Shown here: positions 8,339-19,992 of the stretch, piece after piece
Layout: each line of letters starts with the position of its first letter
Position numbering within the stretch: the first letter of the stretch is position 1
IMG/VR virus record: IMGVR_UViG_3300020530_000425
Strand: one strand, 5' to 3'
Origin: an uncultured virus (IMG/VR IMGVR_UViG_3300020530_000425)
Taxonomy: Duplodnaviria; Heunggongvirae; Uroviricota; Caudoviricetes
DNA: 20,000 nt
Program-made: the position numbers and the translations under genes
Notes under the pieces: generated by a model
The model's database searches: none
Seen by the model: the letters and a program-made list of their open reading frames with translations, nothing else
What the model was told of the DNA's origin: nothing

Positions 8339-8656
8339 TCAGATAAAAAGTTTTTTCTTTGTTAAAATTTCATATAGAATTTCAACCTCTTCTTCAGTAG
8401 TTAATTCAGGCAAATCATCATCAAACAATCGAAGAGTGTAGACGGTATTTCCTTTTTCATCAAAAAATTCATCAGATTCAGAACTGAATAATGCGGGAGC
8501 ATATTCTATATTTTCTAAAGCATCCTCATCATCTATATCTATCAATGGTATAACATAATAGTGATAAGAATCTACTCCATCTTCTACTTCTATTTTATGA
8601 CACTTCCATTTATTGAAGCTATTTTCAGTTATTAGAGTCTGTGGTAATATAATCAT
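8339..8656 (-). CDS. Acidic hypothetical protein (105 aa)
   Basis: ORF track; has its own promoter upstream. Confidence 0.75.
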   Translation of the reverse strand: MIILPQTLITENSFNKWKCHKIEVEDGVDSYHYYVIPLIDIDDEDALENIEYAPALFSSESDEFFDEKGNTVYTLRLFDDDLPELTTEEEVEILYEILTKKKLFI

Positions 8657-8674
8657 AATTAAAACATTTAGAAG

Positions 8675-8706
8675 TAAATATAATAAAAAAATATGAATTT
8701 TACAAA
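8675..8706 (-). promoter_or_regulatory. Bacteroidota-type promoter
   Basis: Minus strand: TTTG-N20-TATATTTA. Confidence 0.6.
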
Positions 8707-8716
8707 TTACAGTTTC

Positions 8717-9367
8717 TTATAATATCTTTTTACCATTTTCTTTAAACAATCCTGCGTACACATAATTTGCAAATTGTTTATGTCCCAAAAAACTTAAATG
8801 ATAATCTTCCATTTTACCTTTGGTAGCATCTTTTATATTTTGTGCTCTCGAATCTTCCCAAATAGTTTGGGTATAAAATTCAAAATATTTATAACATTTT
8901 ATTATAGATTTTAAAAAATCATATCTTTGTTCATGACGTTGACGATATACATCATGCCCACTAAAATAATATGAAAAATTAACAATGGTTTCATATTCTT
9001 CTTTACTTTTAACTGTGGTTTTATATCCTGTTTCGGATTTGACTACGTTTCCGCATATAGTATAAAATTCACCTGGAGTTTCAGATGGTATATCAAATCG
9101 ATTTGAAAAAGTTTTATTAACAATTACAATATCGTTTTCCGAAATTAAATGATAATTACTTATTATCTTATCAAATATATAATCATTAGATGCTCCACAT
9201 TTACCCAAATTATTTAATTTATATCCCAATTTATTGGCCAATATAACAGGCCAAATTAAATCATCATCATTTTTTTTATATTGTTTATAATAGTCATCCC
9301 CCTCATAGTTTAGGACACATCCGTGTCCAAACGTCATTGAATCGCCAAAAGTCCAAAGTGTTGCCAT
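8717..9367 (-). CDS. SGNH/GDSL-fold hydrolase or acyltransferase
   Basis: FGDSMTFG (block I), GKCGASN (block II), DYHLSFLGH (block V-like Asp/His). Confidence 0.85.
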   Translation of the reverse strand: MATLWTFGDSMTFGHGCVLNYEGDDYYKQYKKNDDDLIWPVILANKLGYKLNNLGKCGASNDYIFDKIISNYHLISENDIVIVNKTFSNRFDIPSETPGEFYTICGNVVKSETGYKTTVKSKEEYETIVNFSYYFSGHDVYRQRHEQRYDFLKSIIKCYKYFEFYTQTIWEDSRAQNIKDATKGKMEDYHLSFLGHKQFANYVYAGLFKENGKKIL

Positions 9368-9369
9368 TT

Positions 9370-10419
9370 TTAAATTAAAGTTTTTTCAGTTTCGTATAAA
9401 TGATGAAAATTATGTAATACATTTGGAATATTTTTAACTTTATCCAATTCTAACAAAAACAAATTATGTTCTGGATGTTCTGGATTTGCTACATTTTTAA
9501 TTTTAAATTCAGCTTCACTGAATGTACCCCAATCCGAAATTACATTAGTTCTGATATCCCATTTTACTTTACTTTCTCTGTTATCCATATATGATTTAAT
9601 CATTTTATAAAAATCATACATTTCTTTATAATTAGTATCTTGCACCACAAATGAAAAAATATATTCTTTAATTGTTGGTATTTTTGTTATAAAACTTAAA
9701 TTTTCATGTAACACATTCCAATTACCACCAATTCTAGTTTTAGTTTCGTATGTTTCTTTTGTAGCTGCATCTATTGAAATTTCACAAGTATTAACATAAC
9801 AATGTATTCCACTCATCTTCTCCCACATTTCGGGAGTCCATAGTGACCCATTTGTATGTAAGTGAATTGATTTTAATTTTTTAAATTTGGTTGAATCCAA
9901 TGTAATAAGAAACTGTCTAAATGATTTTGAGAAAAATGGGTCAGCCGAACCACTCAATACTAATCTTTCAACAAACGGTGATATTTCGTTATTGATTTCA
10001 GTTAGTTTTTTTTCTACAGTTAATCGTGCATTACCTTTATAATTTATCAATTCAACTCTACAGGATGGACATTGAAAATTACAACTTCTATCAAATGTAA
10101 AATTAATTACTTTAGGTTTTTTGGTTTTATGTAAAGTATCAACATTTTCACGTGTATTAGGTATAAATTTAAGAGGTACTCTATTACTTTTTAAACTTGC
10201 TAAATACGGACATAAAGTTTCATTACAATATTTGTAACTACCATCGGTTACACTATCTCTTATTTTTTCAGAAATTTCAGAATTAAAGCTAGATACTATA
10301 CCACTACCATCATTTATATCAACTGGTAGCCAAGATGGACAGCACAAAAATTGTTTATTATCCTCCACTTCTGTAAAGTAGAATGGAGCGGTACATATAT
10401 ATTTTGATTTATCAATCAT
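9370..10419 (-). CDS. Radical SAM enzyme with an N-terminal SPASM/Twitch-like Cys cluster
   Basis: CNFQCPSC (CxxxCxxC), SGSADPF, HTNGSL, ISIDAA; N-terminal CTAPF...CCPSW...CNETLC. Confidence 0.9.
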   Translation of the reverse strand: MIDKSKYICTAPFYFTEVEDNKQFLCCPSWLPVDINDGSGIVSSFNSEISEKIRDSVTDGSYKYCNETLCPYLASLKSNRVPLKFIPNTRENVDTLHKTKKPKVINFTFDRSCNFQCPSCRVELINYKGNARLTVEKKLTEINNEISPFVERLVLSGSADPFFSKSFRQFLITLDSTKFKKLKSIHLHTNGSLWTPEMWEKMSGIHCYVNTCEISIDAATKETYETKTRIGGNWNVLHENLSFITKIPTIKEYIFSFVVQDTNYKEMYDFYKMIKSYMDNRESKVKWDIRTNVISDWGTFSEAEFKIKNVANPEHPEHNLFLLELDKVKNIPNVLHNFHHLYETEKTLI

Positions 10420-10436
10420 CCTTTAATACTATTATA

Positions 10437-10919
10437 TTAAAATATTTTCTTTTTTATATTTTTTTTATCTATAAACACAATCAATGACCATCGTTCACCA
10501 TAAGTTACTTCTTTAACTTCATGCAATCCACTTCCATAAAAACTATATATAGAACCACATATCTTTGGTAAAATTTTCATCGGATTGTAACATATAAGTT
10601 CTCCACCTCCGTAATCTTCATTCAAGCAAACTCCTATATTATATTCACTTCTTTTATCTATATGCGGTTGAAATTTATTTCCTGTTTGAACATTTTGTAA
10701 GTGAATTAAATTAATTGGTTCTACTAATTTTATACTTGTATGTTGTTCAATGTATTCCATTAATCTTACAAAAATCCATTCCGTTAAATCGGTTCGTTCT
10801 ACATGCCAAGCAAAGTATTTTGTTTCATCACTTTCCCACCATTCATCAGATGTATGTTTTTTAAATACACTTTGAAGTGAAATTATTTTTTTACATTCTT
10901 CTTTTGTAAAATTTATCAT
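10437..10919 (-). CDS. 2OG-Fe(II) oxygenase, prolyl-4-hydroxylase-like
   Basis: HID (HxD), LNEDYGGGEL, HEVKEVTYGERWSL. Confidence 0.9.
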   Translation of the reverse strand: MINFTKEECKKIISLQSVFKKHTSDEWWESDETKYFAWHVERTDLTEWIFVRLMEYIEQHTSIKLVEPINLIHLQNVQTGNKFQPHIDKRSEYNIGVCLNEDYGGGELICYNPMKILPKICGSIYSFYGSGLHEVKEVTYGERWSLIVFIDKKNIKKKIF

Positions 10920-10925
10920 ATAATT

Positions 10926-11498
10926 TTATAATAAAGTTTTATTACTAGATATAGTACTACCATATTTAGCATTATTAGATATAGTAGTTCTCAATATAGA
11001 TATATGTGTAAGTTTTAAATGAGATGGAAACAATAGTTGAAATTTTATTATATCAAAAATTTCTGAAAATTTTATTTTATTAGATGTAACTATTTTGTTA
11101 TGTTCTAACGTAGTAGGATATAAATTCACAACTCTTAATTTCATATTGTGATGTTTATTTATTAGATTAATGGAAGATTTTTGTAAATTTAATTTACTTT
11201 CTCTATACTCATCAATACTACCATTATTAAGAATAGCCGATGTTAGTATATTAAAAATAGTTTTTTCTTTATATTTCCATTCTTCAAAAAGTTCTTCAAA
11301 TAATTTTTGTTGATAAATTGGATGATATGTATTATTTATAAAAACATCACATTCATTAGCATCTTGTATTATTTTTTCGTAATTTTCTAATGAATAATTA
11401 TTGGTTCTTGAAAATCCAATAACTTCGTTTTCTTTTTTGAGTAGGGTATAAAGTTCTTTACCTAAATTTTGAGTATGACCTGTTATTGCTACTTTCAT
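10926..11498 (-). CDS. Short-chain dehydrogenase/reductase-like Rossmann protein
   Basis: KVAITGHTQNLG, FINN, catalytic S...YRESK (YxxxK). Confidence 0.8.
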   Translation of the reverse strand: MKVAITGHTQNLGKELYTLLKKENEVIGFSRTNNYSLENYEKIIQDANECDVFINNTYHPIYQQKLFEELFEEWKYKEKTIFNILTSAILNNGSIDEYRESKLNLQKSSINLINKHHNMKLRVVNLYPTTLEHNKIVTSNKIKFSEIFDIIKFQLLFPSHLKLTHISILRTTISNNAKYGSTISSNKTLL

Positions 11499-11546
11499 TG
11501 AATTAATTTTTTTGTTTCCTTTAGAATATATACGGCATTGTTTTAC

Positions 11547-12491
11547 TTAAATTAAACTATTATTTTTTAATAAAACACTTTTCTTTTCAGTTTTCTGAAT
11601 CCACTCATAGTATTTTTTAGATGCAGTATTTTCTTTTAGTTTTAAATTTAAGTTATATGGGAGTGATTTTTTATAGTTTGATTTATTAAAATAATTGATA
11701 TTAGAATTGGTTACTCCTGCATTATGCATTATGTTATATCTATTATAAAAATCCTCACTTGATGTTGCAAAAACAAACATTAAATCGGGATGACATTGTG
11801 TTTTATATCCACCCTTCCAAATGTTCCATAGTACAGACCACATATCTGCTGCCCATATTTGTAATTCATGATAAGATGGATTTTCTTGTTTTTTCTTGTT
11901 ATTTAATTGGGTTATTTTTTTATATAAATTTTCACAATCACGCTCCACATTTTCCCAAAAAGTATCATCTATATTTTTTAAAATATACTGTGCCCCGATT
12001 GAATTATTATTATTATCGATAACAAGTTGTGGATTTATATCTACTATTTTAACCATTTTATCAAAAACATCTTTGCCTTTAGAAATTATATAGTCATACG
12101 AAATATACCAATGTGTATTAGAACCATAAAATATATCATCGTTTTCAAACTGATTCCAATTTATTGGAACTCTAAATATAATATCACAATCGTGATAAAA
12201 TATGGTTTCATTTTTTAAATTAGGATGTAATTTAAAATGTTGTTTAAGAATATTAGGTCTTATTGAAGAAATATAATGTTTTGTTATACGAGTATCCTCA
12301 TAGAAAAAAAATCTAGCATTATACCCATTTGATAATTTTTTCCATACTTCTGGTATTTTATTATTTTTTTTTGTGCAAACTATATCAACACATTGAAGGT
12401 CCACCCCCATTTCCATAAAATTATTAAGCATGACTTCTATTTGCCATGCAAAGTATAATTCGGATGGTTGTGCACAAATAAATCTAATCAT
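11547..12491 (-). CDS. GT-A glycosyltransferase resembling HPAT/SERGT protein O-glycosyltransferases
   Basis: YFAWQ near the N-terminus, YHDCDIIF (DxD), GAQY, WAADMW, late IMH. Confidence 0.7.
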   Translation of the reverse strand: MIRFICAQPSELYFAWQIEVMLNNFMEMGVDLQCVDIVCTKKNNKIPEVWKKLSNGYNARFFFYEDTRITKHYISSIRPNILKQHFKLHPNLKNETIFYHDCDIIFRVPINWNQFENDDIFYGSNTHWYISYDYIISKGKDVFDKMVKIVDINPQLVIDNNNNSIGAQYILKNIDDTFWENVERDCENLYKKITQLNNKKKQENPSYHELQIWAADMWSVLWNIWKGGYKTQCHPDLMFVFATSSEDFYNRYNIMHNAGVTNSNINYFNKSNYKKSLPYNLNLKLKENTASKKYYEWIQKTEKKSVLLKNNSLI

Positions 12492-12505
12492 AATTTTTTT
12501 ATAAA

Positions 12506-13102
12506 TTATAATAATTTACTTTTAGCAGAAGAAAAATCGGATTCATATAAAAATATAGTTAAACTAAATCTAATACCCTCTTCTAATAGTTTTACTTCAT
12601 GTATATCCGAACTTAAAAATAAAGAATATGACCCTTGTTCTTTGGATTGAGGAACATCCTTAACATATAAATATCCACCAACATAATCTTTAGGGTCTGA
12701 TAATTGGATTACTAAAGTTTTATATGTACAACCAAATTCATCTATGCTTCTAAAATCACGATGAGGCGCAAAAAAATCACCTTCAATATATTTTGTTATT
12801 TTAACCTGATTATTTAAAATAGATTTTATACCGATTTTTGATAATCTACTTAAAATAAAATTTATTAATTCTTTGTTAAACAAATCTAAAAATTTTAATT
12901 TTGCATTTTTTGGTTTGATGGTAATTATTCTACCGTTTTCCGTTTGTAATTGTACAGTAGTTGCACCATTTATTACGGTAGTAGTATCTTTACGGTAATT
13001 GCCATTGGTTGTTCGATATACTACACCATCTATTGAATTAAAATCATCCCAAAAAGATTTTATATATTCACAATCTTCTTTTGAAAATAAAACATTATCC
13101 AT
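12506..13102 (-). CDS. 2OG-Fe(II) oxygenase
   Basis: KYIEGDFFAPHRD, QLSDPKDYVGGYL, HEVKLLEEGIRFSL. Confidence 0.9.
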   Translation of the reverse strand: MDNVLFSKEDCEYIKSFWDDFNSIDGVVYRTTNGNYRKDTTTVINGATTVQLQTENGRIITIKPKNAKLKFLDLFNKELINFILSRLSKIGIKSILNNQVKITKYIEGDFFAPHRDFRSIDEFGCTYKTLVIQLSDPKDYVGGYLYVKDVPQSKEQGSYSLFLSSDIHEVKLLEEGIRFSLTIFLYESDFSSAKSKLL

Positions 13103-13117
13103 AAATAACTTAATGTA

Positions 13118-13255
13118 TTATAGATGTTTTTGTTTAAATAAATTTACAAAGGTAGTAATTATATTCATTGCTTTTAATTTATCATCAGATGATGCTAATG
13201 ATATTTGTGTATTTGCTACTTCTTGAACCGGTATTTTTTTATATATTGTTGCCAT
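13118..13255 (-). CDS. Small 45-aa protein (not in the ORF track)
   Basis: Manual translation MATIYKKIPVQEVANTQISLASSDDKLKAMNIITTFVNLFKQKHL*; A-rich leader (aaaataaaATG); fills the gap between the 735-aa gene and the oxygenase. Confidence 0.75.
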   Translation of the reverse strand: MATIYKKIPVQEVANTQISLASSDDKLKAMNIITTFVNLFKQKHL

Positions 13256-13277
13256 TTTATTTTTGTTTATTAATAAG

Positions 13278-15485
13278 TTATTGAAAAACTGCTTGTCTTT
13301 TAAGAGTATTATTTAGTAATTCATTATCCCCTAAACCAGAAACCACAAAATCCTCCACTATAAAGTTATGCTCACTTTCAAATAAAAGATTACCATCTAT
13401 TTCTAAATTATAAAAATTATCCACATATTGAATACCTAATTCAACACCTGGTGCTTCAAAAATTGGTTTCCATTCTCCATTATCATAGAATGGATGTAAT
13501 CTATCGGAAATCATTCCTTTATATTTTACAACCTCAACAACATCATTTGTAGGGTGTATTAATTTATCAGTTACAACACCTCTTACATATTTACCGTCTT
13601 TGTAACTTAAAATACAATCTCCTATTTCTATATCAATAATATTTTTAAAACTACCATCTTCCATTTCAACTTTGGTTTCAGCAGTGAAACACGATGTTGT
13701 TGTTGTAACTTTATTATGAACTAAAATGTTTTCTGCAAAATAAGTATGATTATCTTTAACATCAATTAAGTGATATACTTTGAATTCACCTTTTAAAGAT
13801 TCAATTGATTTAACTTTTACAAGAATACCATCTTTATTAAATAACAAATTACCTACTTTAATATCTTGTGCGTGAGACCATCCGTGTTCCTCAACATAAA
13901 ATTTATGTAAAGGTGTACTTTTAACTTCATCACCATTTTCAGTTACAATATAAATAAGTTCATTTTGAGTAGAAACACGAATACTTGTAGCCGTACCTGC
14001 TCCATATTTTCCTTGTTCATTATTGTAAGTAAGTAAAACATCAGTAGTAGTTAAATCTTCAATGTTTTTATATGTACCATCATTTAACAATATACGAGTT
14101 CCTGCTGGGAAACAGTTGTGGGTTACAATCTTAATATTGATATCATTATCATATAATGCAAATGTATCAGTTTCTTCCAAATCTAAAATGTAAGTTGAAA
14201 GTCCTTCTTCGTTTAAAACTTCAAAATCATTATCAGTAATATCAATAAGATTACCATCTAATTTGAATACCTTATGTTCTCCTGGTATAATTCCTGCAAC
14301 TTCTTCGTATCTAATTAAATCAGAAACACTATCATAAATAAGAATATGTTGACCACCATTTGCTCTAAACGAACCACTACCATAGTATAAATGAGATACT
14401 AGATTATTTGGAAGTGATTGTTCTATTTTATTTATTAAAACCGAAGATGTAACATAAGAACCACTTGGTAAAGTTTGTCCAGGATAACTCCAACTTGTAA
14501 ATACCATAACACTATCGGTATCAGGTGTTCCTTCTATACAAAAAGATTTATAAGAACCGCCAATTTCAACATCAGATATTTGTACAGGATTTCCATCCGA
14601 ATCACTAATTAATTCTTCTTCAAAAATACCACCCCATGAATTATCAGTAATAAATTTAGGAAAGTTTGTTGTAAATTCATAATAATGTTTAGATGAAAGG
14701 TTAGATTCATCAATAAAAGATAAAGATTCTGGTTTTTCAAAAACTGCAGTAGGTTCAATTGTTACCAAATTTATTACATCTAATTCAGAACCATATATTA
14801 TGTTAAATGTACGAATTGATTTATGTCTAATGTCATCGGTATCTTCATAATTCATTAAAATATTAGATTCAATATATGATTGAGATATAAATGAATCAAA
14901 CGAATTTTCTAAACTTACACCATCTTGTGTTTGTATTTTATAAAAAGATAATGGATATCTAGCATAAGTTTCATCTTTTATAACAATATCCGGTATATTT
15001 TCGGAATTAACAACTCTTTGTAATCCATCATAAAAAAATTCCGATGATGAAATATACATAGAAGGTATTGAACCAGTTTCGGATGCATCTATAAATAATT
15101 TATGTAATTCAAATGATGATTTACAATATTCACTATCAAATACAGCAGATTCATCATACGCTAATCTTAATATAAATTTATTATCAGAATCTTCAACATT
15201 TGTTGGATAAACAGTTGATATATCTTCTTCGTATATAACAAATGAGGTAATGTTAGGTTGTGATTGAATACTTTGAGATAAAAAAGTTAAAAACCCACTT
15301 TGGAATGGTTTGTGAATTACCTCCAATGAATCGATATTATTATCAGATAATATTGAAAAGAATTCAGTAAAATCAAGTTGAGATACTGAACTACTCCAGA
15401 ATCCAGTATCGGTATTTAATTCCAATAATCTCAAATTACCAGTTGAGTCTTTTACAAAATCTGCGGAAAATAGTGTTCCTTTCAT
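13278..15485 (-). CDS. Circularly permuted ATP-grasp-like domain fused to three tandem Hint (intein-like) domains
   Basis: N-terminal ADFVKDSTGNLRLLELNTDT resembles the glutathionylspermidine-synthetase D..D...LLExNxDT motif. Hint1 G286-N457 (GIFEEELISDSDG...IVTHN), Hint2 C458-N591 (CFPAGT...TPLH...ILVHN), linker KVTTTTS, Hint3 C599-~G717 (CFTAET...RLHPF...FVVSG). Confidence 0.85.
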   Translation of the reverse strand: MKGTLFSADFVKDSTGNLRLLELNTDTGFWSSSVSQLDFTEFFSILSDNNIDSLEVIHKPFQSGFLTFLSQSIQSQPNITSFVIYEEDISTVYPTNVEDSDNKFILRLAYDESAVFDSEYCKSSFELHKLFIDASETGSIPSMYISSSEFFYDGLQRVVNSENIPDIVIKDETYARYPLSFYKIQTQDGVSLENSFDSFISQSYIESNILMNYEDTDDIRHKSIRTFNIIYGSELDVINLVTIEPTAVFEKPESLSFIDESNLSSKHYYEFTTNFPKFITDNSWGGIFEEELISDSDGNPVQISDVEIGGSYKSFCIEGTPDTDSVMVFTSWSYPGQTLPSGSYVTSSVLINKIEQSLPNNLVSHLYYGSGSFRANGGQHILIYDSVSDLIRYEEVAGIIPGEHKVFKLDGNLIDITDNDFEVLNEEGLSTYILDLEETDTFALYDNDINIKIVTHNCFPAGTRILLNDGTYKNIEDLTTTDVLLTYNNEQGKYGAGTATSIRVSTQNELIYIVTENGDEVKSTPLHKFYVEEHGWSHAQDIKVGNLLFNKDGILVKVKSIESLKGEFKVYHLIDVKDNHTYFAENILVHNKVTTTTSCFTAETKVEMEDGSFKNIIDIEIGDCILSYKDGKYVRGVVTDKLIHPTNDVVEVVKYKGMISDRLHPFYDNGEWKPIFEAPGVELGIQYVDNFYNLEIDGNLLFESEHNFIVEDFVVSGLGDNELLNNTLKRQAVFQ

Positions 15486-15548
15486 AGTGTTGTGTTTATT
15501 CGTTTATTCCTGTATAAATATGAGTATTACAAATAAATGATTATTATT

Positions 15549-16148
15549 CTATATTAAGTTTTGTTTTGGTTTAATATCAATTGTATTTCGTAATCTATTT
15601 CTATTATCTAATAGAGAATACGATTTTACTTTTTTAATTTCTAGATAGTTAGTTAATTTATCAATATCTACATTACTTTGATATAGATTTTCACAATATA
15701 TATTTTCGTATGATATTAATAATTCAATTTGTGGTATATTAGATATTAACTCTTTGTTTTTTTGTAATCTAGATTCCTCCTTTTTGATTTCTTCTTCATT
15801 TTCTGTTATCCATTCATTAGTTATTTCATAACAATCTCTCCAAATGTTAGAAGCCAATGCCCAGCAGTGTGATATCGCACACTCTCGTGTATCATTTCGT
15901 ATCAAACCAATAATTTTATCCCAATTACTCCAATCGAACGTATCTAATTCATTTTCTATTTCACTAATCAAATATTTTACTACCGTATTGTTTTTGTTTT
16001 TAGCCAATAATCGTATTTTATAAATACTCAATATATCCCCATTATCCATTGTTGGTTCATGAATAGTTTCATACCTTTTTTCTGAACCAATCCAATTAAG
16101 TAAAGAGTATCCACCACTTCTACCCATCGCTATTATTAATATTCTCAT
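15549..16148 (-). CDS. Sulfotransferase-like (Stf0-like) P-loop protein
   Basis: IIAMGRSGGYSL (5'-PSB-like loop), HEP, LIRNDTRECAIS (3'-PB-like R...S), ISYE. Confidence 0.65.
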   Translation of the reverse strand: MRILIIAMGRSGGYSLLNWIGSEKRYETIHEPTMDNGDILSIYKIRLLAKNKNNTVVKYLISEIENELDTFDWSNWDKIIGLIRNDTRECAISHCWALASNIWRDCYEITNEWITENEEEIKKEESRLQKNKELISNIPQIELLISYENIYCENLYQSNVDIDKLTNYLEIKKVKSYSLLDNRNRLRNTIDIKPKQNLI

Positions 16149-16888
16149 TATTTACCATTCTTAATTGAGCCAGATATATTTGATGCAATCGCATAAAACG
16201 CATCGTATGCTTCTAATAGGGAATCAACTACTGGATGTCTATGGTTGGTAAGTAGGGTATGTGAATCCATATCCTTAATCTTCTTTGCAGCAGATACTAA
16301 AAACTTAAATCCACTTTCTCCTTTTGATTTTAAATCTACTTGTTGTGTATCACCACACACCACCATTTTACTTCTCAATCCCAAACGAGATGTAATCATT
16401 TCCATTTGTTCGTTAGTACAATTTTGAGCCTCATCTACAATAATAAATGAATCCAAAAATGTTCTACCTCGCATAAATGCAAGGGGTACAATTTCTACTG
16501 TCCCATCTTTTAAAATCTCATCTATTTTTTGTTTGTTGTAAAGTTGATAAAAGTTTGCATAAACTGGCTGCATCCAAGGTTCCATCTTTTCGCGAAGGTC
16601 ACCTGGTAGGAATCCAATTTCTTCTTTGGATACGGTAGGTCTTGTGATGATGATTTGTTTAACTTCTTTCTTAAATAACATATCCAATGCAACCTGACAC
16701 GCTAGGAGTGTTTTACCACTACCTGCTTTACCACTCAATATGGTAATTGCATTTGATAAAATCTTTTCTTTGGCTTGTTTTTGTTCTTCATTTAACTGAA
16801 GTTGAAATTTAATAGAACCTTTTGGTCGTTTTTGGTCTGCTATTTGTTCTGTCAATTCTCTATGTTTTGTTGATATATTTGATGCCAT
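16148..16888 (-). CDS. phoH: PhoH-like ATPase
   Basis: GKAGSGKT, ITRP, IGFLPGDLREKM, PLAFMRGRTF, DEAQN, GDTQQVDL, HRHP. Confidence 0.95.
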   Translation of the reverse strand: MASNISTKHRELTEQIADQKRPKGSIKFQLQLNEEQKQAKEKILSNAITILSGKAGSGKTLLACQVALDMLFKKEVKQIIITRPTVSKEEIGFLPGDLREKMEPWMQPVYANFYQLYNKQKIDEILKDGTVEIVPLAFMRGRTFLDSFIIVDEAQNCTNEQMEMITSRLGLRSKMVVCGDTQQVDLKSKGESGFKFLVSAAKKIKDMDSHTLLTNHRHPVVDSLLEAYDAFYAIASNISGSIKNGK

Positions 16889-16916
16889 AAATTTTTTGTC
16901 TAACTAATGAAACTTA

Positions 16917-17417
16917 TTAAATTACAGAATGTAAAATTAGTTCGTGCAATCCTTCAACAATTCCGTAATCTTTACTATCTACCCAAAAATGTAATTTTGA
17001 ATGACTACCAAAGTTGGATTTCAATTTATTCTTTTCGGAATGACCCGACATTGTAATCATATCAATAGAGTTATCTACACAATACTTCGCACAATTCAGT
17101 ATATTTTTTGAATTACCTGATGATGATATTAATATTACCAATGTATCGCCCTCCACAAAGTGTTCTAAAAACATTTGATATGCGTTATCCCATCCGTAAT
17201 CATTCGCATAACAACTCATTCTAGGAGTATCTCCGAACGCAATTGCTTTAACCCCTAACATTTTATGGTAATCCTCTGCTATATGTAACGCAACGGCATT
17301 ACTACCACCATTACCTAATATAATGATATTACTATGATGATGTATTAAATTTTTCAATGTTGCTAATTTACCCAATTCTATTTGGGATAAACATTTTTTA
17401 TATTCTTGTAAATCCAT
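16917..17417 (-). CDS. SIS-domain phosphosugar isomerase, GmhA-like
   Basis: GNGGSNAVALH, ANDYG, ISSSGNSKNI, YGIVEGLH. Confidence 0.85.
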   Translation of the reverse strand: MDLQEYKKCLSQIELGKLATLKNLIHHHSNIIILGNGGSNAVALHIAEDYHKMLGVKAIAFGDTPRMSCYANDYGWDNAYQMFLEHFVEGDTLVILISSSGNSKNILNCAKYCVDNSIDMITMSGHSEKNKLKSNFGSHSKLHFWVDSKDYGIVEGLHELILHSVI

Positions 17418-17424
17418 ATATGCT

Positions 17425-17661
17425 TTATAAATTTTCTACACTATTCCATTTCTTTAAATCGCAACTACCCATAACAGGTGTGAATATCTTTTTACCCAAC
17501 GGACACCCACATTCACCGCATATTTCGGTAAATACTACTGAAGGTTGTTTGGATGGGCATGTTTGACAAATAGTATATCGTTTTCCAGCTAATATAGTTT
17601 GCTCTGGTGTTGGGTTTGCAGCTCTTCTCCAACTTAAAAATATTTCTGATACTTTGTTCAT
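17425..17661 (-). CDS. Small Cys-rich putative metal-binding protein
   Basis: RYTICQTCP...CGECGCPL...CDLKKW. Confidence 0.8.
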   Translation of the reverse strand: MNKVSEIFLSWRRAANPTPEQTILAGKRYTICQTCPSKQPSVVFTEICGECGCPLGKKIFTPVMGSCDLKKWNSVENL

Positions 17662-17960
17662 AAAGATTTGATTATATCATCGATTCGTTTACACTGCTCA
17701 AAAATTTCAAAATCTAGCATTCTCTGATGTATCCAATCCAATATTGAACTATATTCTTCCTTTTTAACGGTAACGTATGCAGGTACTCCTTCAAACCTAA
17801 ATACAACTAATTCTTTAGTTCCTTTAATTTTTTTGAAAACTTCGATTAAATCGATAATCTTAATCATCTGCTCTGCATTCATTTCTATCTTACTAATATA
17901 TTCTTTCCAATCCAATTGGATGTAACTTCTTTCTAGGCTAGATAAAACTTTGGCATTCAT
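17658..17960 (-). CDS. Hypothetical protein with a possible UVR-like C-terminal helix pair
   Basis: ORF track; ends EIFEQCKRIDDII; overlaps the next gene by 4 nt (ATGA). Confidence 0.7.
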   Translation of the reverse strand: MNAKVLSSLERSYIQLDWKEYISKIEMNAEQMIKIIDLIEVFKKIKGTKELVVFRFEGVPAYVTVKKEEYSSILDWIHQRMLDFEIFEQCKRIDDIIKSL

Positions 17961-17984
17961 ATAGATGTAGATGATTAGAGTATA

Positions 17985-18063
17985 ACAATATACTAATAAT
18001 TATTAAATTTTCCAAAATAACTGATTAAAAGCTTGTTTTTTATTTTCATTTTTTGTACATTGG
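17985..18063. promoter_or_regulatory. Divergent pair of Bacteroidota-type promoters
   Basis: Minus strand: TTTG(18016-18013)-N20-TATATTGT(17992-17985). Plus strand: TTG(18033-18035)-N20-TACATTGG(18056-18063). Confidence 0.5.
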
Positions 18064-18087
18064 ATTTGTTATGAAATAATACACTAT

Positions 18088-18240
18088 ATGAAAAACGAAA
18101 CGGATATTCTAATAGAAATTGCAGAGTTAGAGGTTGAACTGGCACGAGAAATGCGGGAAGATATTCTACATGATATCAACATACTAAAAATAAGAACGGC
18201 AATTGCTACACTCCAATGGGTGTTAGGAGTTGAAAAATAA
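18088..18240 (+). CDS. Hypothetical 50-aa protein (not in the ORF track)
   Basis: Manual translation MKNETDILIEIAELEVELAREMREDILHDINILKIRTAIATLQWVLGVEK*; promoter upstream. Confidence 0.7.
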   Translation: MKNETDILIEIAELEVELAREMREDILHDINILKIRTAIATLQWVLGVEK

Positions 18241-18253
18241 ATGTTAGAAAAAG

Positions 18254-18315
18254 CTAGGATTATTCGGTCTTTTTTCGTAGATTAGTAGAGTAATAATAGT
18301 TAAACCCCTAACCCC
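18254..18315 (+). promoter_or_regulatory. Promoter/leader copy A of the plus-strand island
   Basis: CTAG-N20-TAGATTAG, then tagagtaataatagttaaacccctaacccc. Confidence 0.6.
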
Positions 18316-18322
18316 AAATCGT

Positions 18323-18532
18323 ATGTATAATTACAAAACTTACACCAAAGCCCAACTAATCGAATTAGTTAACTCAATTGAATCCACTATCCACTCTACA
18401 TTGATGGCAGCAGAACCTGCTTCGAGGGAACACTCTTCCGAACTCCTTTCCCAACTGGCATTTGAGACTGGGTATCTGAAAGGTGGATTAAAGAGTGTAA
18501 TATCACACATCCAAGCTGCAAAAAAATATTAA
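18323..18532 (+). CDS. Hypothetical 69-aa protein
   Basis: ORF track; own promoter/leader. Confidence 0.75.
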   Translation: MYNYKTYTKAQLIELVNSIESTIHSTLMAAEPASREHSSELLSQLAFETGYLKGGLKSVISHIQAAKKY

Positions 18533-18560
18533 AAATAATCCAAAAATATTTTCACAAGCT

Positions 18561-18625
18561 CTTGGAATTGTGAGAAACTTTTCGTACATTTATAGAGTAA
18601 TAAGAGATAACCCCTAAAACCCCCC
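18561..18625 (+). promoter_or_regulatory. Promoter/leader copy B of the plus-strand island
   Basis: CTTG-N20-TACATTTA, then tagagtaataagagataacccctaaaaccccc; near-repeat of copy A. Confidence 0.65.
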
Positions 18626-18630
18626 TAAAA

Positions 18631-19215
18631 ATGAGTAAGAAAATGAAATTCGGATTTAACAAAATGACTTTTGAACTTCCATCTGCTTCCCTACAGACCA
18701 AAAAATGGGATAACAACAAACCATTTATCAATATGAATGCTAAAAACACTGCGAGTGTGATTAAGCAATACGCAAAACAAAAGTACGGAAACTCCATAGT
18801 AGTTTGGGCTAACTCCGATGTGTATAGTGGTGGTTCTTCAGTACGAATCAATGTGAGTAAAGCAGATGGTTCTCCAGTCTCCACCAACATCTACAACGAT
18901 ATCCAACTATTCTCCTACAACTTTAAAGCTGGTAGATTCGATGGAATGTATGATTGTTACGAATACAGAAACGATGAGGTTCTAACAGATAACGGAACTC
19001 AAATGGATTACTTCCCATCTTACATCTTCGTAGAAAATAAACCAAAGTGGGATTCAGTAGAATACTGGTTGAATGAGTGGAATACCTTTGACCCTTCTAA
19101 CTACTCTAGACCTATGGTAGGTAATACTCTTTGGGAGCAGTTTATGAACTTCAACTCCTCCTATTGGAAGAAAGGAACTTTGGAATCCCTAACCAAAGTA
19201 TTAGTAAAAGCATAA
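18631..19215 (+). CDS. Hypothetical protein, LPD29-like (large polyvalent protein-associated domain)
   Basis: YSGGSSVRINV...DGSP...FKAGRFDGMYDCYEY resembles the LPD29 pattern as I recall it. The ORF itself is solid; the family call is tentative. Confidence 0.6.
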   Translation: MSKKMKFGFNKMTFELPSASLQTKKWDNNKPFINMNAKNTASVIKQYAKQKYGNSIVVWANSDVYSGGSSVRINVSKADGSPVSTNIYNDIQLFSYNFKAGRFDGMYDCYEYRNDEVLTDNGTQMDYFPSYIFVENKPKWDSVEYWLNEWNTFDPSNYSRPMVGNTLWEQFMNFNSSYWKKGTLESLTKVLVKA

Positions 19216-19228
19216 CACATATTTTTTA

Positions 19229-19264
19229 TCGGCGGGGGTTGGGGGACCTCCGTCGAACTTTTTT
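19229..19264 (+). terminator. GC-rich intrinsic terminator at the convergent junction
   Basis: TCGGCGGGGGT-tggggg-ACCTCCGTCGA, an 11-bp stem with two G-U pairs, followed by acTTTTTT. Confidence 0.75.
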
Positions 19265-19293
19265 AAGAAAAATTTTTATACCTCAATTGATAG

Positions 19294-19992
19294 TTATATT
19301 AATCTCACCTTTTTTCTAATTTTTTTTATTTTCGGTAGTTCCAGTATTTTTCTATCACATATATAATCATAGTATTTAGTTTCTTCCTCTATAGCATTTA
19401 GTATTCTCGACCATATCTCGGGAAACACTATCTTTATGGAATTGATTATATCCGTACGAGAAGGACCGTATTTCGAAAAATTATAATCGGATGGAGTGTA
19501 TGCACCAGTAGCACCAACAATACCATTTTTAGCAAGAAAACGGGTTAAATCCCTTAATGGAACTATTTGTATATTTGGTCTCATTTGAAACAAATACCAC
19601 AATCCCTTATATAGTGTGGGTGACCAATGTCCCGTTCCAAATGTAGTATATTCCAATAACCATTCCCTTAATTCCAAATTAGTAGAAATAAACCCACCAC
19701 CATCTTTTATTAAATTTTTATGATGTCCGGATATATCGGTATGTAATGCGGCTTGTAATAAATCCATCGGCTCCCTTAATATTATATGTGTAATGGGTAG
19801 TTTCCAATAATGGAATATATGTTCCGAAGGAATCATTATTTTGTTATGATTTTCCGTATCGTTTATAAACTCATCCCAATCCAACGGAAATTGTGTATTT
19901 AATTGTGTTTTAATATCTAATAACTTATCTATATGACGGCTACCACATTTTGCGGGAACTAACCAATAGTTATTATATAGTGTTAAATCCAC
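19294..19992 (-). CDS. Sulfotransferase-like protein (divergent)
   Basis: VPAKCGSRHI (PK-x-GS loop-like), ILREP, HW motif; GTG start with an in-frame stop two codons upstream. Confidence 0.5.
   Translation of the reverse strand: MDLTLYNNYWLVPAKCGSRHIDKLLDIKTQLNTQFPLDWDEFINDTENHNKIMIPSEHIFHYWKLPITHIILREPMDLLQAALHTDISGHHKNLIKDGGGFISTNLELREWLLEYTTFGTGHWSPTLYKGLWYLFQMRPNIQIVPLRDLTRFLAKNGIVGATGAYTPSDYNFSKYGPSRTDIINSIKIVFPEIWSRILNAIEEETKYYDYICDRKILELPKIKKIRKKVRLI

Follow-up and report, generated by a model that had tools for sequence, protein, structure and literature searches.

Encapsulins, microcompartments, peroxisomes and protease pathways all organise their cargo by means of short address tags at a protein terminus; in encapsulins and bacterial microcompartments (BMCs), short shared peptides of this kind load cargo proteins that are otherwise unrelated. 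The encapsulin and BMC peptides are about 10-20 residues long, often helical, and are read by the shell. Class I PDZ ligands, which end in X-[S/T]-X-hydrophobic-COOH, are four residues long and present a free hydrophobic C-terminus. In the biosynthesis of ribosomally synthesised and post-translationally modified peptides (RiPPs), the recognition element is the leader of the substrate, which is read by a RiPP recognition element (RRE) on each enzyme. Here we describe a four-residue C-terminal sequence, called the tag below, that is shared by unrelated enzymes encoded in a 20,000-nucleotide stretch of DNA (the window) from the uncultured Caudoviricetes virus IMGVR_UViG_3300020530_000425. The tagged genes form an island around the gene of a 735-amino-acid (aa) protein that joins an ATP-grasp-like ligase domain to Hint folds, the ligase-Hint protein.

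A short C-terminal address motif is a known kind of signal; the tag itself, the module that it accompanies and the inverted logic, in which the label sits on the enzymes, are undescribed. A full-text literature search, with supplements outside it, found no prior description of the tag or the module, and we know of no case in which the tailoring enzymes of a viral gene island carry such a tag. Like the encapsulin and BMC peptides, the tag is a short terminal peptide found on unrelated enzymes (at least eight families), which are encoded beside its presumed reader and are interchangeable between lineages. The tag differs from those peptides in being only four residues long, in its obligatory free end and in its neighbour, which is a ligase-Hint fusion.

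The window, part of a contig of only 24 kb, has the content of a T4-like myovirus (PhoH, peptide deformylase, Hsp20, UvdE and a carbamoyltransferase), with nearly all genes on the minus strand and a GC content of 25-34%; a gp55-type late sigma factor, so labelled in an earlier reading made from the sequence alone, found no family match in the window scans. That sequence-only reading had drawn attention to nine C-termini and listed other genes whose products end differently, and both lists are correct. The nine genes, seven of which are consecutive, are as follows.

8339..8656, minus strand: strongly acidic 105-aa protein; tail KKKLFI, a marginal tag
8717..9367, minus strand: 216-aa enzyme (label 'SGNH', unconfirmed); tag GKKIL
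9370..10419, minus strand: radical SAM enzyme (Pfam PF04055); tag EKTLI on an extension of about seven residues
10437..10919, minus strand: 160-aa 2-oxoglutarate (2OG)-Fe(II) oxygenase (Pfam PF13640); tag KKKIF
10926..11498, minus strand: 190-aa Rossmann-like protein (label 'SDR'); tag NKTLL
11547..12491, minus strand: 314-aa protein of phrog_4417 (label 'GT'); tag NNSLI
12506..13102, minus strand: 198-aa 2OG-Fe(II) oxygenase (Pfam PF13640); tag KSKLL
15549..16148, minus strand: 199-aa protein (label 'sulfotransferase-like', unconfirmed); tag KQNLI
19294..19992, minus strand: 232-aa protein with a GTG start (180 aa from the first ATG); tail KVRLI, a possible outlying tag

The fold names attached to these genes fared unevenly. 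Pfam supports the radical SAM enzyme and the two 2OG-Fe(II) oxygenases; the SGNH, GT and sulfotransferase-like labels have no Pfam support, and SDR has only a weak RmlD_sub_bind match (E 0.015).

The statistics of these endings were obtained from 26 minus-strand open reading frames (ORFs) of at least 50 aa, leaving aside shorter ORFs, the three on the plus strand and any ORF of which a longer one covered more than 30%. Nine of the 26 end in [LIF][LIF], seven of them consecutively, whereas 1.45 such ends are expected from each protein's own composition (P = 5e-6) and 1.71 from that of its last 20 residues (P = 3e-5). In 200,000 simulations, no run of seven tagged ORFs appeared. Two relatives allow the same count over larger genomes: a 145-kb IMG/VR relative in which every window gene compared is identical (G001), and a complete 202-kb relative with about 90% protein identity (G002). 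Ends of the form [LIF][LIF] occur in 15 of 145 ORFs in G001 and in 14 of 216 in G002. When Met and Val are also allowed, eight of nine island ORFs are tagged in G001 against 8/110 in the rest of the genome, and eight of ten in G002 against 14/177. The stricter pattern proposed in the sequence-only reading for a genome-wide count, [KNST]-x-[LI]-[LIF], is found at six of nine island ends in G001 (0.11 expected) and at three of 136 ends outside it (1.29 expected). We consider the tag very probably real and under selection. The KTML ending of UvdE (named UvsE in that reading), which had been offered as a partial match, is a chance resemblance because it is lost in homologues at 60-90% identity (0/4 distinct tails).

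The anatomy of the tag was examined across relatives. An alignment of ligases yielded 37 loci, reduced to 29 non-redundant loci by merging those with ligases at least 90% identical; 355 distinct tails from genes at positions -3 to +12 from the ligase were compared with 268 tails from genes farther away. Counting back from the terminal residue (P0), the leading residues are Ile (0.36) and Leu (0.15) at P0, Leu (0.33) and Ile (0.15) at P-1, Lys (0.25), Ser (0.12), Thr (0.10) and Asn (0.09) at P-2, and Lys (0.31) and Asn (0.10) at P-3. The last four residues hold 0.66, 0.53, 0.37 and 0.39 bits of information, and by P-5 the content has dropped to background level; the tails of the distant genes stay at 0.06-0.14 bits at every position. 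Most frequent among the endings are KSLI, KKIL, KKII, KTLL and KTLI. The consensus K-[K/S/T/N]-[L/I]-[I/L]-COOH is a position-specific C-terminal signal, with residues upstream that drift and terminal residues that are held.

Comparison with class I PDZ ligands reveals both a likeness and a difference. The tag shares their length of four residues and their free hydrophobic end, and KTLI, KSLI, NSLI and KTLL fit the ligand pattern formally. However, Ser or Thr occupies P-2 in only about 22% of the 355 tails, Lys being commonest there, and is missing from that position in five of the nine window tails; moreover, P-1, which is free in class I ligands, is strongly Leu or Ile in the tag. A PDZ/TPR-like adaptor had been suggested as a possible reader; among the 207 of 216 ORFs of the complete G002 genome that were scanned, none has a Pfam PDZ or TPR match at E ≤ 1e-5.

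Conservation in orthologues separates the nine endings. Seven tags, those of the 216-aa protein, the radical SAM enzyme, both 2OG oxygenases and the 190-aa, 314-aa and 199-aa proteins, are robustly kept in diverged homologues. Among homologues below 40% identity, distinct tails end in two hydrophobic residues in 18/18 cases for the 198-aa oxygenase, 24/26 for the 160-aa oxygenase and 3/3 for the 190-aa protein, the last of which keeps such ends in all distinct tails of every identity bin. The 198-aa oxygenase family ends in KSKLL, TKTLI, NKSLI or SKSLI down to 30% identity, and tails of 160-aa oxygenase orthologues include PNKLL, KNKLV, TSKLL and KKGLI. The 216-aa protein likewise has hydrophobic-hydrophobic tails in every bin (GKKLL, NKKIL, VNKLI, KVKII). 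Orthologues of the 199-aa protein at 77-81% identity end in KRSLI, and one homologue of the 314-aa protein at 60-90% identity ends in KNSLL. The two remaining endings are less secure. Orthologues of the 105-aa protein at 81-87% identity end in KKLF[IM], and its distant homologues end in KEIFLK and RKSIYK; below 90% identity, two of four distinct tails are hydrophobic-hydrophobic; the ending is kept only in close orthologues. This protein has no Pfam or PHROG match. For the 232-aa protein only two distant homologues were found, ending in VKLL and IEIQ. In the comparison proteins, hydrophobic-hydrophobic distinct tails never occur in Hsp20, PhoH or a 346-aa protein, and they occur once each in the HD protein and the carbamoyltransferase.

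The radical SAM enzyme illustrates how the tag is carried. Its homologues end in EKPLI, KSPLI or TISLI down to 59% identity, and at 40-60% identity seven of ten distinct tails are hydrophobic-hydrophobic. Untagged homologues (at most 49% identity) stop at HNFHHL[IF]N or similar, whereas the window protein extends further, with YETEKTLI. The tag is present on copies in the ligase island and absent from a paralogue in a second, sugar-modifying island of the same phages and from homologues in ligase-free loci. In the 314-aa protein, the phrog_4417 profile covers residues 3-302 and the last 12 residues lie beyond it; homologues occur in 77 cultured-phage records, and among the 30 matches listed the alignments reach only residues 283-305. 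In the alignment of 2OG oxygenases, the tag comes after the last conserved strand, from which a short variable stretch separates it. The suggestion that the tag often sits on a tail beyond the catalytic domain holds in these cases, where it could be checked. As a separate observation, the cultured-phage homologues of phrog_4417 are mostly from Firmicutes phages, and the matched region is annotated as a tail protein in some Enterococcus phage records.

When 745 ORFs were clustered by BLAST into 264 families, the tagged proteins fell into separate clusters, unrelated in sequence and belonging to at least eight families. The tagged fraction of each family is as follows.

2OG oxygenases (merged): 59/62 tagged
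199-aa family: 17/20 tagged
144-aa family: 14/17 tagged
Radical SAM family: 12/13 tagged beside the ligase
190-aa family: 9/9 tagged
216-aa family: 8/9 tagged
243-aa family: 7/7 tagged
269-aa family: 6/6 tagged
Core families: Hsp20 0/8, HD 0/8 and PhoH 0/5 tagged

These endings could in principle lack any function in the protein, arising as a by-product of AT-rich codons, from a signal in DNA or RNA at the ends of genes or through translational coupling. No other part of the window is as rich in AT as the tagged island, and gene ends in the relatives' genomes are generally rich in Lys, Ile and Leu (Lys at the last position 0.17-0.19, against 0.08 overall). The caution in the sequence-only reading that AT-rich codons inflate these residues was fair, since gene ends have this bias, yet composition does not account for the tag. 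The composition-matched expectation stays between 1.5 and 1.7 for nine endings observed, and a second island of similar GC content (0.28, against 0.265 in the tagged island) is essentially untagged. This sugar-modifying island of 26-29 ORFs encodes nucleotide-sugar epimerases, a dTDP-sugar isomerase, glycosyltransferases and radical SAM enzymes; in two relatives, four of 29 and four of 26 of its ORFs have such ends, with 2.3-2.5 expected. AT-richness as the cause is ruled out by the composition shuffles together with this island. Because the sugar island is essentially untagged, the tag is confined to one island and does not mark tailoring enzymes as such; the description of the tagged proteins as tailoring enzymes applies to the one island and fails for the sugar-modifying island of the same phages.

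The sugar island lies at 52.5-77.4 kb in G001 and at 129.9-157.0 kb in G002, and it includes GT7-type transferases fused to lectin-like domains as well as two radical SAM enzymes. Its exceptions are a protein of 479-480 aa that ends in NKTLI and a 440-aa protein that ends in NKLL.

A signal in the nucleic acid fares no better. Across orthologous islands, Leu in the tag is encoded by TTA, CTC, CTA, CTT, TTG and CTG, Ser by AGT, TCA, AGC and TCT, and Ile by ATT and ATA; the stop codons that follow vary among TAA, TGA and TAG, and the DNA 3' of the stops is unlike from gene to gene. The signal acts at the level of protein, not DNA, because residues are kept across synonymous codons and different stops and the DNA after the stop is unconserved. 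A DNA or RNA motif at gene ends is ruled out by the same observations. Translational coupling is ruled out as well, with spacing to the next gene that ranges from overlap to about 70 nt after tagged genes and with tightly coupled core genes that are untagged. We accordingly give very little credence to an absence of protein function.

Tagging is tied to the ligase-Hint module. Over the 29 loci, the tagged fraction at positions +1 to +6 from the ligase gene is 17/29, 20/28, 18/28, 16/27, 15/26 and 15/26 (58-71%), and at -1 and -2 it is 13/28 and 12/27 (44-46%). It is 1/21, 0/20 and 0/19 at -7 to -9 and 0/12, 1/8 and 0/6 at +16 to +18; beyond +16, single ORFs aside, it amounts to 0-12%. Two diverged tagged clusters that were found via the radical SAM enzyme (L015 and L016) lie directly downstream of a diverged ligase homologue. 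In the loci examined, tagged clusters always occur with the ligase, and the ligase does not always occur with a cluster. The 735-aa and 45-aa products, which the sequence-only reading had named among the partners for co-folding, proved to be the constant core beside which the tagged genes cluster. Both are untagged.

13118..13255, minus strand: 45-aa basic partner ORF (YKK ... F..FK.KH[L/S]), part of the constant core
13278..15485, minus strand: 735-aa protein with an ATP-grasp-like ligase domain (residues 1-278) and three Hint/BIL folds, the candidate reader or hub

The N-terminal domain of the 735-aa protein was folded alone, the Hint fold having dominated the structural matches in a 455-residue model. 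Its AF2 model (pLDDT 87.3) resembles enzymes of one group: the top 11 rows of a VIA structural comparison are all glutathione synthetase, GspS, YgiC/YjfC or trypanothione synthetase (Z 8.6-6.5, 197-225 residues aligned, root-mean-square deviation (rmsd) 4.6-5.6), and Foldseek finds the same group at E 1e-6 to 1e-4. RimK, ArgX/LysX with LysW (3vpb, 5k2m) and tubulin-tyrosine-ligase-like (TTLL) enzymes follow. The domain thus has, at fold level and with moderate scores, the ATP-grasp fold of the circularly permuted glutathione synthetase type; residues 1-450 gave no match to Pfam GSP_synth or ATP-grasp at E ≤ 0.01. In the ligase homologues E22-x-N24 (ExN), which we take to be a metal-binding motif, is invariant. 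On this fold-level evidence and its moderate scores, the domain is predicted to be an ATP-grasp carboxylate-amine ligase, a prediction consistent with the invariant motif and with its neighbours in a protein atlas, which we take only as leads.

The remainder of the protein matches Pfam PT-HINT, Hint and Vint, and the family has invariant H456-N457-C458, H590-N591 and C599, that is, the N-terminal Cys and C-terminal His-Asn of Hint domains. Residues 283-455 form a third Hint fold missed by Pfam (VIA Z 18.9 to 2lwy, rmsd 1.6, 138 residues aligned), which has Gly286 at the position of the catalytic Cys and ends in His-Asn right before Cys458 of the next Hint. The last Hint of the window copy lacks the otherwise near-invariant terminal His-Asn-Lys and carries an extension of about 20 residues ending in RQAVFQ. 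No cellular relatives of the ligase were found in a pattern scan of GTDB species genomes, a pattern-based result that is not proof of absence. No cultured phage with the module was found among 50,697 phage records by megablast with the window or by tblastn with the radical SAM enzyme and the ligase N-terminal domain.

In at least 26 of the 29 non-redundant loci, the next ORF after the ligase-Hint gene is a homologous one of 43-50 aa, and locus L065 also has one. The 45-aa protein has no Pfam or PHROG match; it may be the substrate or carrier of the module. A further small family, of about 62 aa, has ten members, none of them tagged, some four to five genes downstream of the ligase (L060, L071, L077, L078, L080-L082 and L085-L087). 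The C-terminal tails in this family are hydrophobic and strand-like (IILFN, IVIYS, LVIYA), and its members are found in lineages with few tagged enzymes.

Because the tag is short, lies at the chain end, occurs on many unrelated enzymes and is tied to a module of changing enzyme content, its most likely function is that of an address label read by a single partner. We put at about one in two the chance that it is an address tag read by a shared partner, which would probably be the ligase-Hint core; both the binding and the identity of the reader are what we infer. Under such a mechanism, one shared reader would bind the free hydrophobic C-terminus and the upstream lysine, and would gather whichever enzymes a phage carries at the same place or on the same substrate. 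A new enzyme could join by gaining four residues, with no need for a recognition domain. The reader would most likely be the ligase-Hint protein itself, acting either as a hub or as the substrate being tailored.

Co-folding, which the sequence-only reading had proposed as a check, gives this address reading weak support by the grading of the tool. Three runs with the 735-aa and 45-aa proteins and the 198-aa oxygenase each gave an ipSAE of 0.32, whereas the best of three controls reached 0.01, and the score was 0.01 when the 735-aa chain was replaced. The runs agree in at least 15% of contacts, with partner pLDDT of at least 68. The mark used is reached by 116 of 157 solved complexes and by two of 215 mismatched pairs; scores of 0.60 or below include only 18 of those 157 complexes and both passing mismatches. 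This calibration holds only roughly here because the co-fold used its own alignments and three chains.

Several observations weigh against the address reading. The co-fold returned no interface and so gives no indication that it is the tail that touches the core, and passes with such scores are wrong more often than not unless the guess was likely beforehand. Four residues are a small binding epitope. A complete 276-kb genome (G004, covering loci L094-L107) has the ligase at 20.7-23.0 kb without an adjacent run of tagged genes; its tag-like ends are scattered, 17 of 332 matching the stricter pattern where 3.2 are expected, a roughly five-fold excess. Because the tags of G004 are scattered, adjacency is not required and a reader encoded by the host fits equally well. 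Loci L078, L079 and L087 have few or no tagged genes near the ligase. In addition, the loci were found with the ligase or the radical SAM enzyme as bait and are phylogenetically related, so that their associations are not independent events, and the background gene sets, produced by a simple ORF caller, may contain some non-genes.

Other candidate modes of binding were considered and dropped. The groove of small heat-shock proteins binds by the IXI rule; the aliphatic residues of the tag are adjacent and not alternating, and the Hsp20 gene, which belongs to the core set, lies far from the island in many loci. A sliding-clamp binding peptide was dropped once tagging had proved to be tied to the ligase island, and the tails show no pattern of a membrane amphipathic helix.

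The main alternative to a shared docking partner is a common degron, in which a free C-terminus that is basic and then hydrophobic is read by a host AAA+ protease, either ClpX in the manner of MuA or FtsH, so that the island enzymes are turned over together. FtsH may read non-polar ends, and the scattered tags of G004 suit a reader encoded outside the island. As listed in Table 1 of PMC8138137, the MuA-type ClpX signal is RRKKAI, which shares with the tag the order of basic and then hydrophobic residues, the extreme free C-terminus and the occurrence on proteins of a mobile element. The endings KKKIF, GKKIL, KKKLFI and RKKVRLI resemble the MuA signal and fit the basic run and the small or hydrophobic residues of ClpX C-motif-2, as that paper gives it; the commoner KSLI, KTLI and NSLI types do not fit. 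In the majority of tags the pattern is K-[S/T/N]-L-I, not a basic run followed by Ala-Ile, and the commonest tails (KSLI, KTLI, KTLL), with their P-2 Ser, Thr or Asn and Leu-Ile end, are unlike RRKKAI. The tag is also tied to one phage module, and a general host degron would leave unaccounted for both the peak of tagging beside one phage gene and the spared sugar island. We regard a common degron as improbable, although it deserves more weight than the other alternatives.

The nature of the N-terminal domain raises another alternative, that the tag is a handle for the ligase as its substrate. A GspS-like ATP-grasp domain would activate the carboxylate of the tag and couple the enzyme covalently to an amine; the acceptor might be a lysine of the 45-aa protein, a polyamine or a Hint product. 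The structural neighbours of the domain activate the terminal carboxylates of peptides or proteins, the ExN residues E22 and N24 are invariant, and the tag needs a free end. RimK, for instance, adds Glu to the C-terminus of protein S6 (PMC10375531). The fold matches are only moderate, however (Z at most 8.6, rmsd about 5 Å); the 45-aa protein, always present and with a conserved C-terminus of its own, is the more obvious ligase substrate, and ligation of a dozen different enzymes would be without precedent. This handle seems to us less probable than a degron. A stronger form of it, a virus-encoded C-terminal conjugation in which the ATP-grasp domain would activate the Ile or Leu carboxylate and join the enzymes to the 45-aa protein or a Hint product, would yield a covalent multi-enzyme assembly resembling ubiquitin or Pup systems with whole enzymes as the tagged party; we hold it to be more doubtful still.

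The LysW/ArgX-LysX pathway offers a parallel to the core itself: an ATP-grasp ligase is encoded next to a protein of about 50 aa, and several enzymes work in one pathway. The parallel is incomplete. LysW has an acidic C-terminal tail that is absent from the 45-aa protein, which is basic at both ends, and the fold match to ArgX (Z 6.0) is weaker than that to the glutathione synthetase group. To our knowledge, the enzymes of the LysW pathway carry no common tag.

The tag might instead target its bearers to a structure, either by loading them into the virion or by anchoring them weakly to a membrane by an end that is polybasic and hydrophobic. A pair of aliphatic residues preceded by lysines could have a preference for anionic membranes, and encapsulins and microcompartments do take up unrelated cargo by way of short shared terminal peptides. 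Nevertheless, Pfam finds no encapsulin or BMC shell gene in the island or in the scanned ORFs of G002, and capsid signals of the T4 type lie at the N-terminus. Upstream of the tag the residues are variable and polar, without an amphipathic pattern, and two aliphatic residues would make a very weak anchor. The 2OG and radical SAM enzymes, moreover, need cytosolic cofactors. Targeting of this kind is thus a distant prospect, on a par with the conjugation described above.

The island as a whole resembles RiPP biosynthesis in its variable tailoring enzymes (2OG and radical SAM), its small peptide and its ATP-grasp enzyme. In contrast to RiPP pathways, where the substrate bears the recognition element, the island has it on the enzymes; Pfam matched no RRE or PqqD-like domain in the window proteins, even with the threshold relaxed to E 5 for those without annotation.

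Two further features concern the phage and its window. Three plus-strand ORFs of 50, 69 and 194 aa at 18088-19215 (+) break the minus-strand arrangement, and all three are kept in relatives on the matching opposite strand. Among the products encoded by G002 (L033:8907-11381, L034:6497-8113, L036:5412-5714, L038:12914-13099) are a receptor-like protein of the TonB-dependent type, with CarboxypepD_reg and Plug domains, GroEL and GroES, and ribosomal protein S21. The type of TonB receptor hints at a Bacteroidota host.

In summary, a tag of four residues marks at least eight unrelated enzyme families and accompanies a virus-only ligase-Hint protein with at least 963 metagenomic relatives. If the tag is indeed a docking signal, it would explain how phages swap enzymes within one pathway. 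It would also supply a sequence rule for finding the members of that pathway, even where they are scattered as in G004, and a minimal handle for engineered enzyme recruitment. The tag points, in addition, to what the ligase-Hint module makes.

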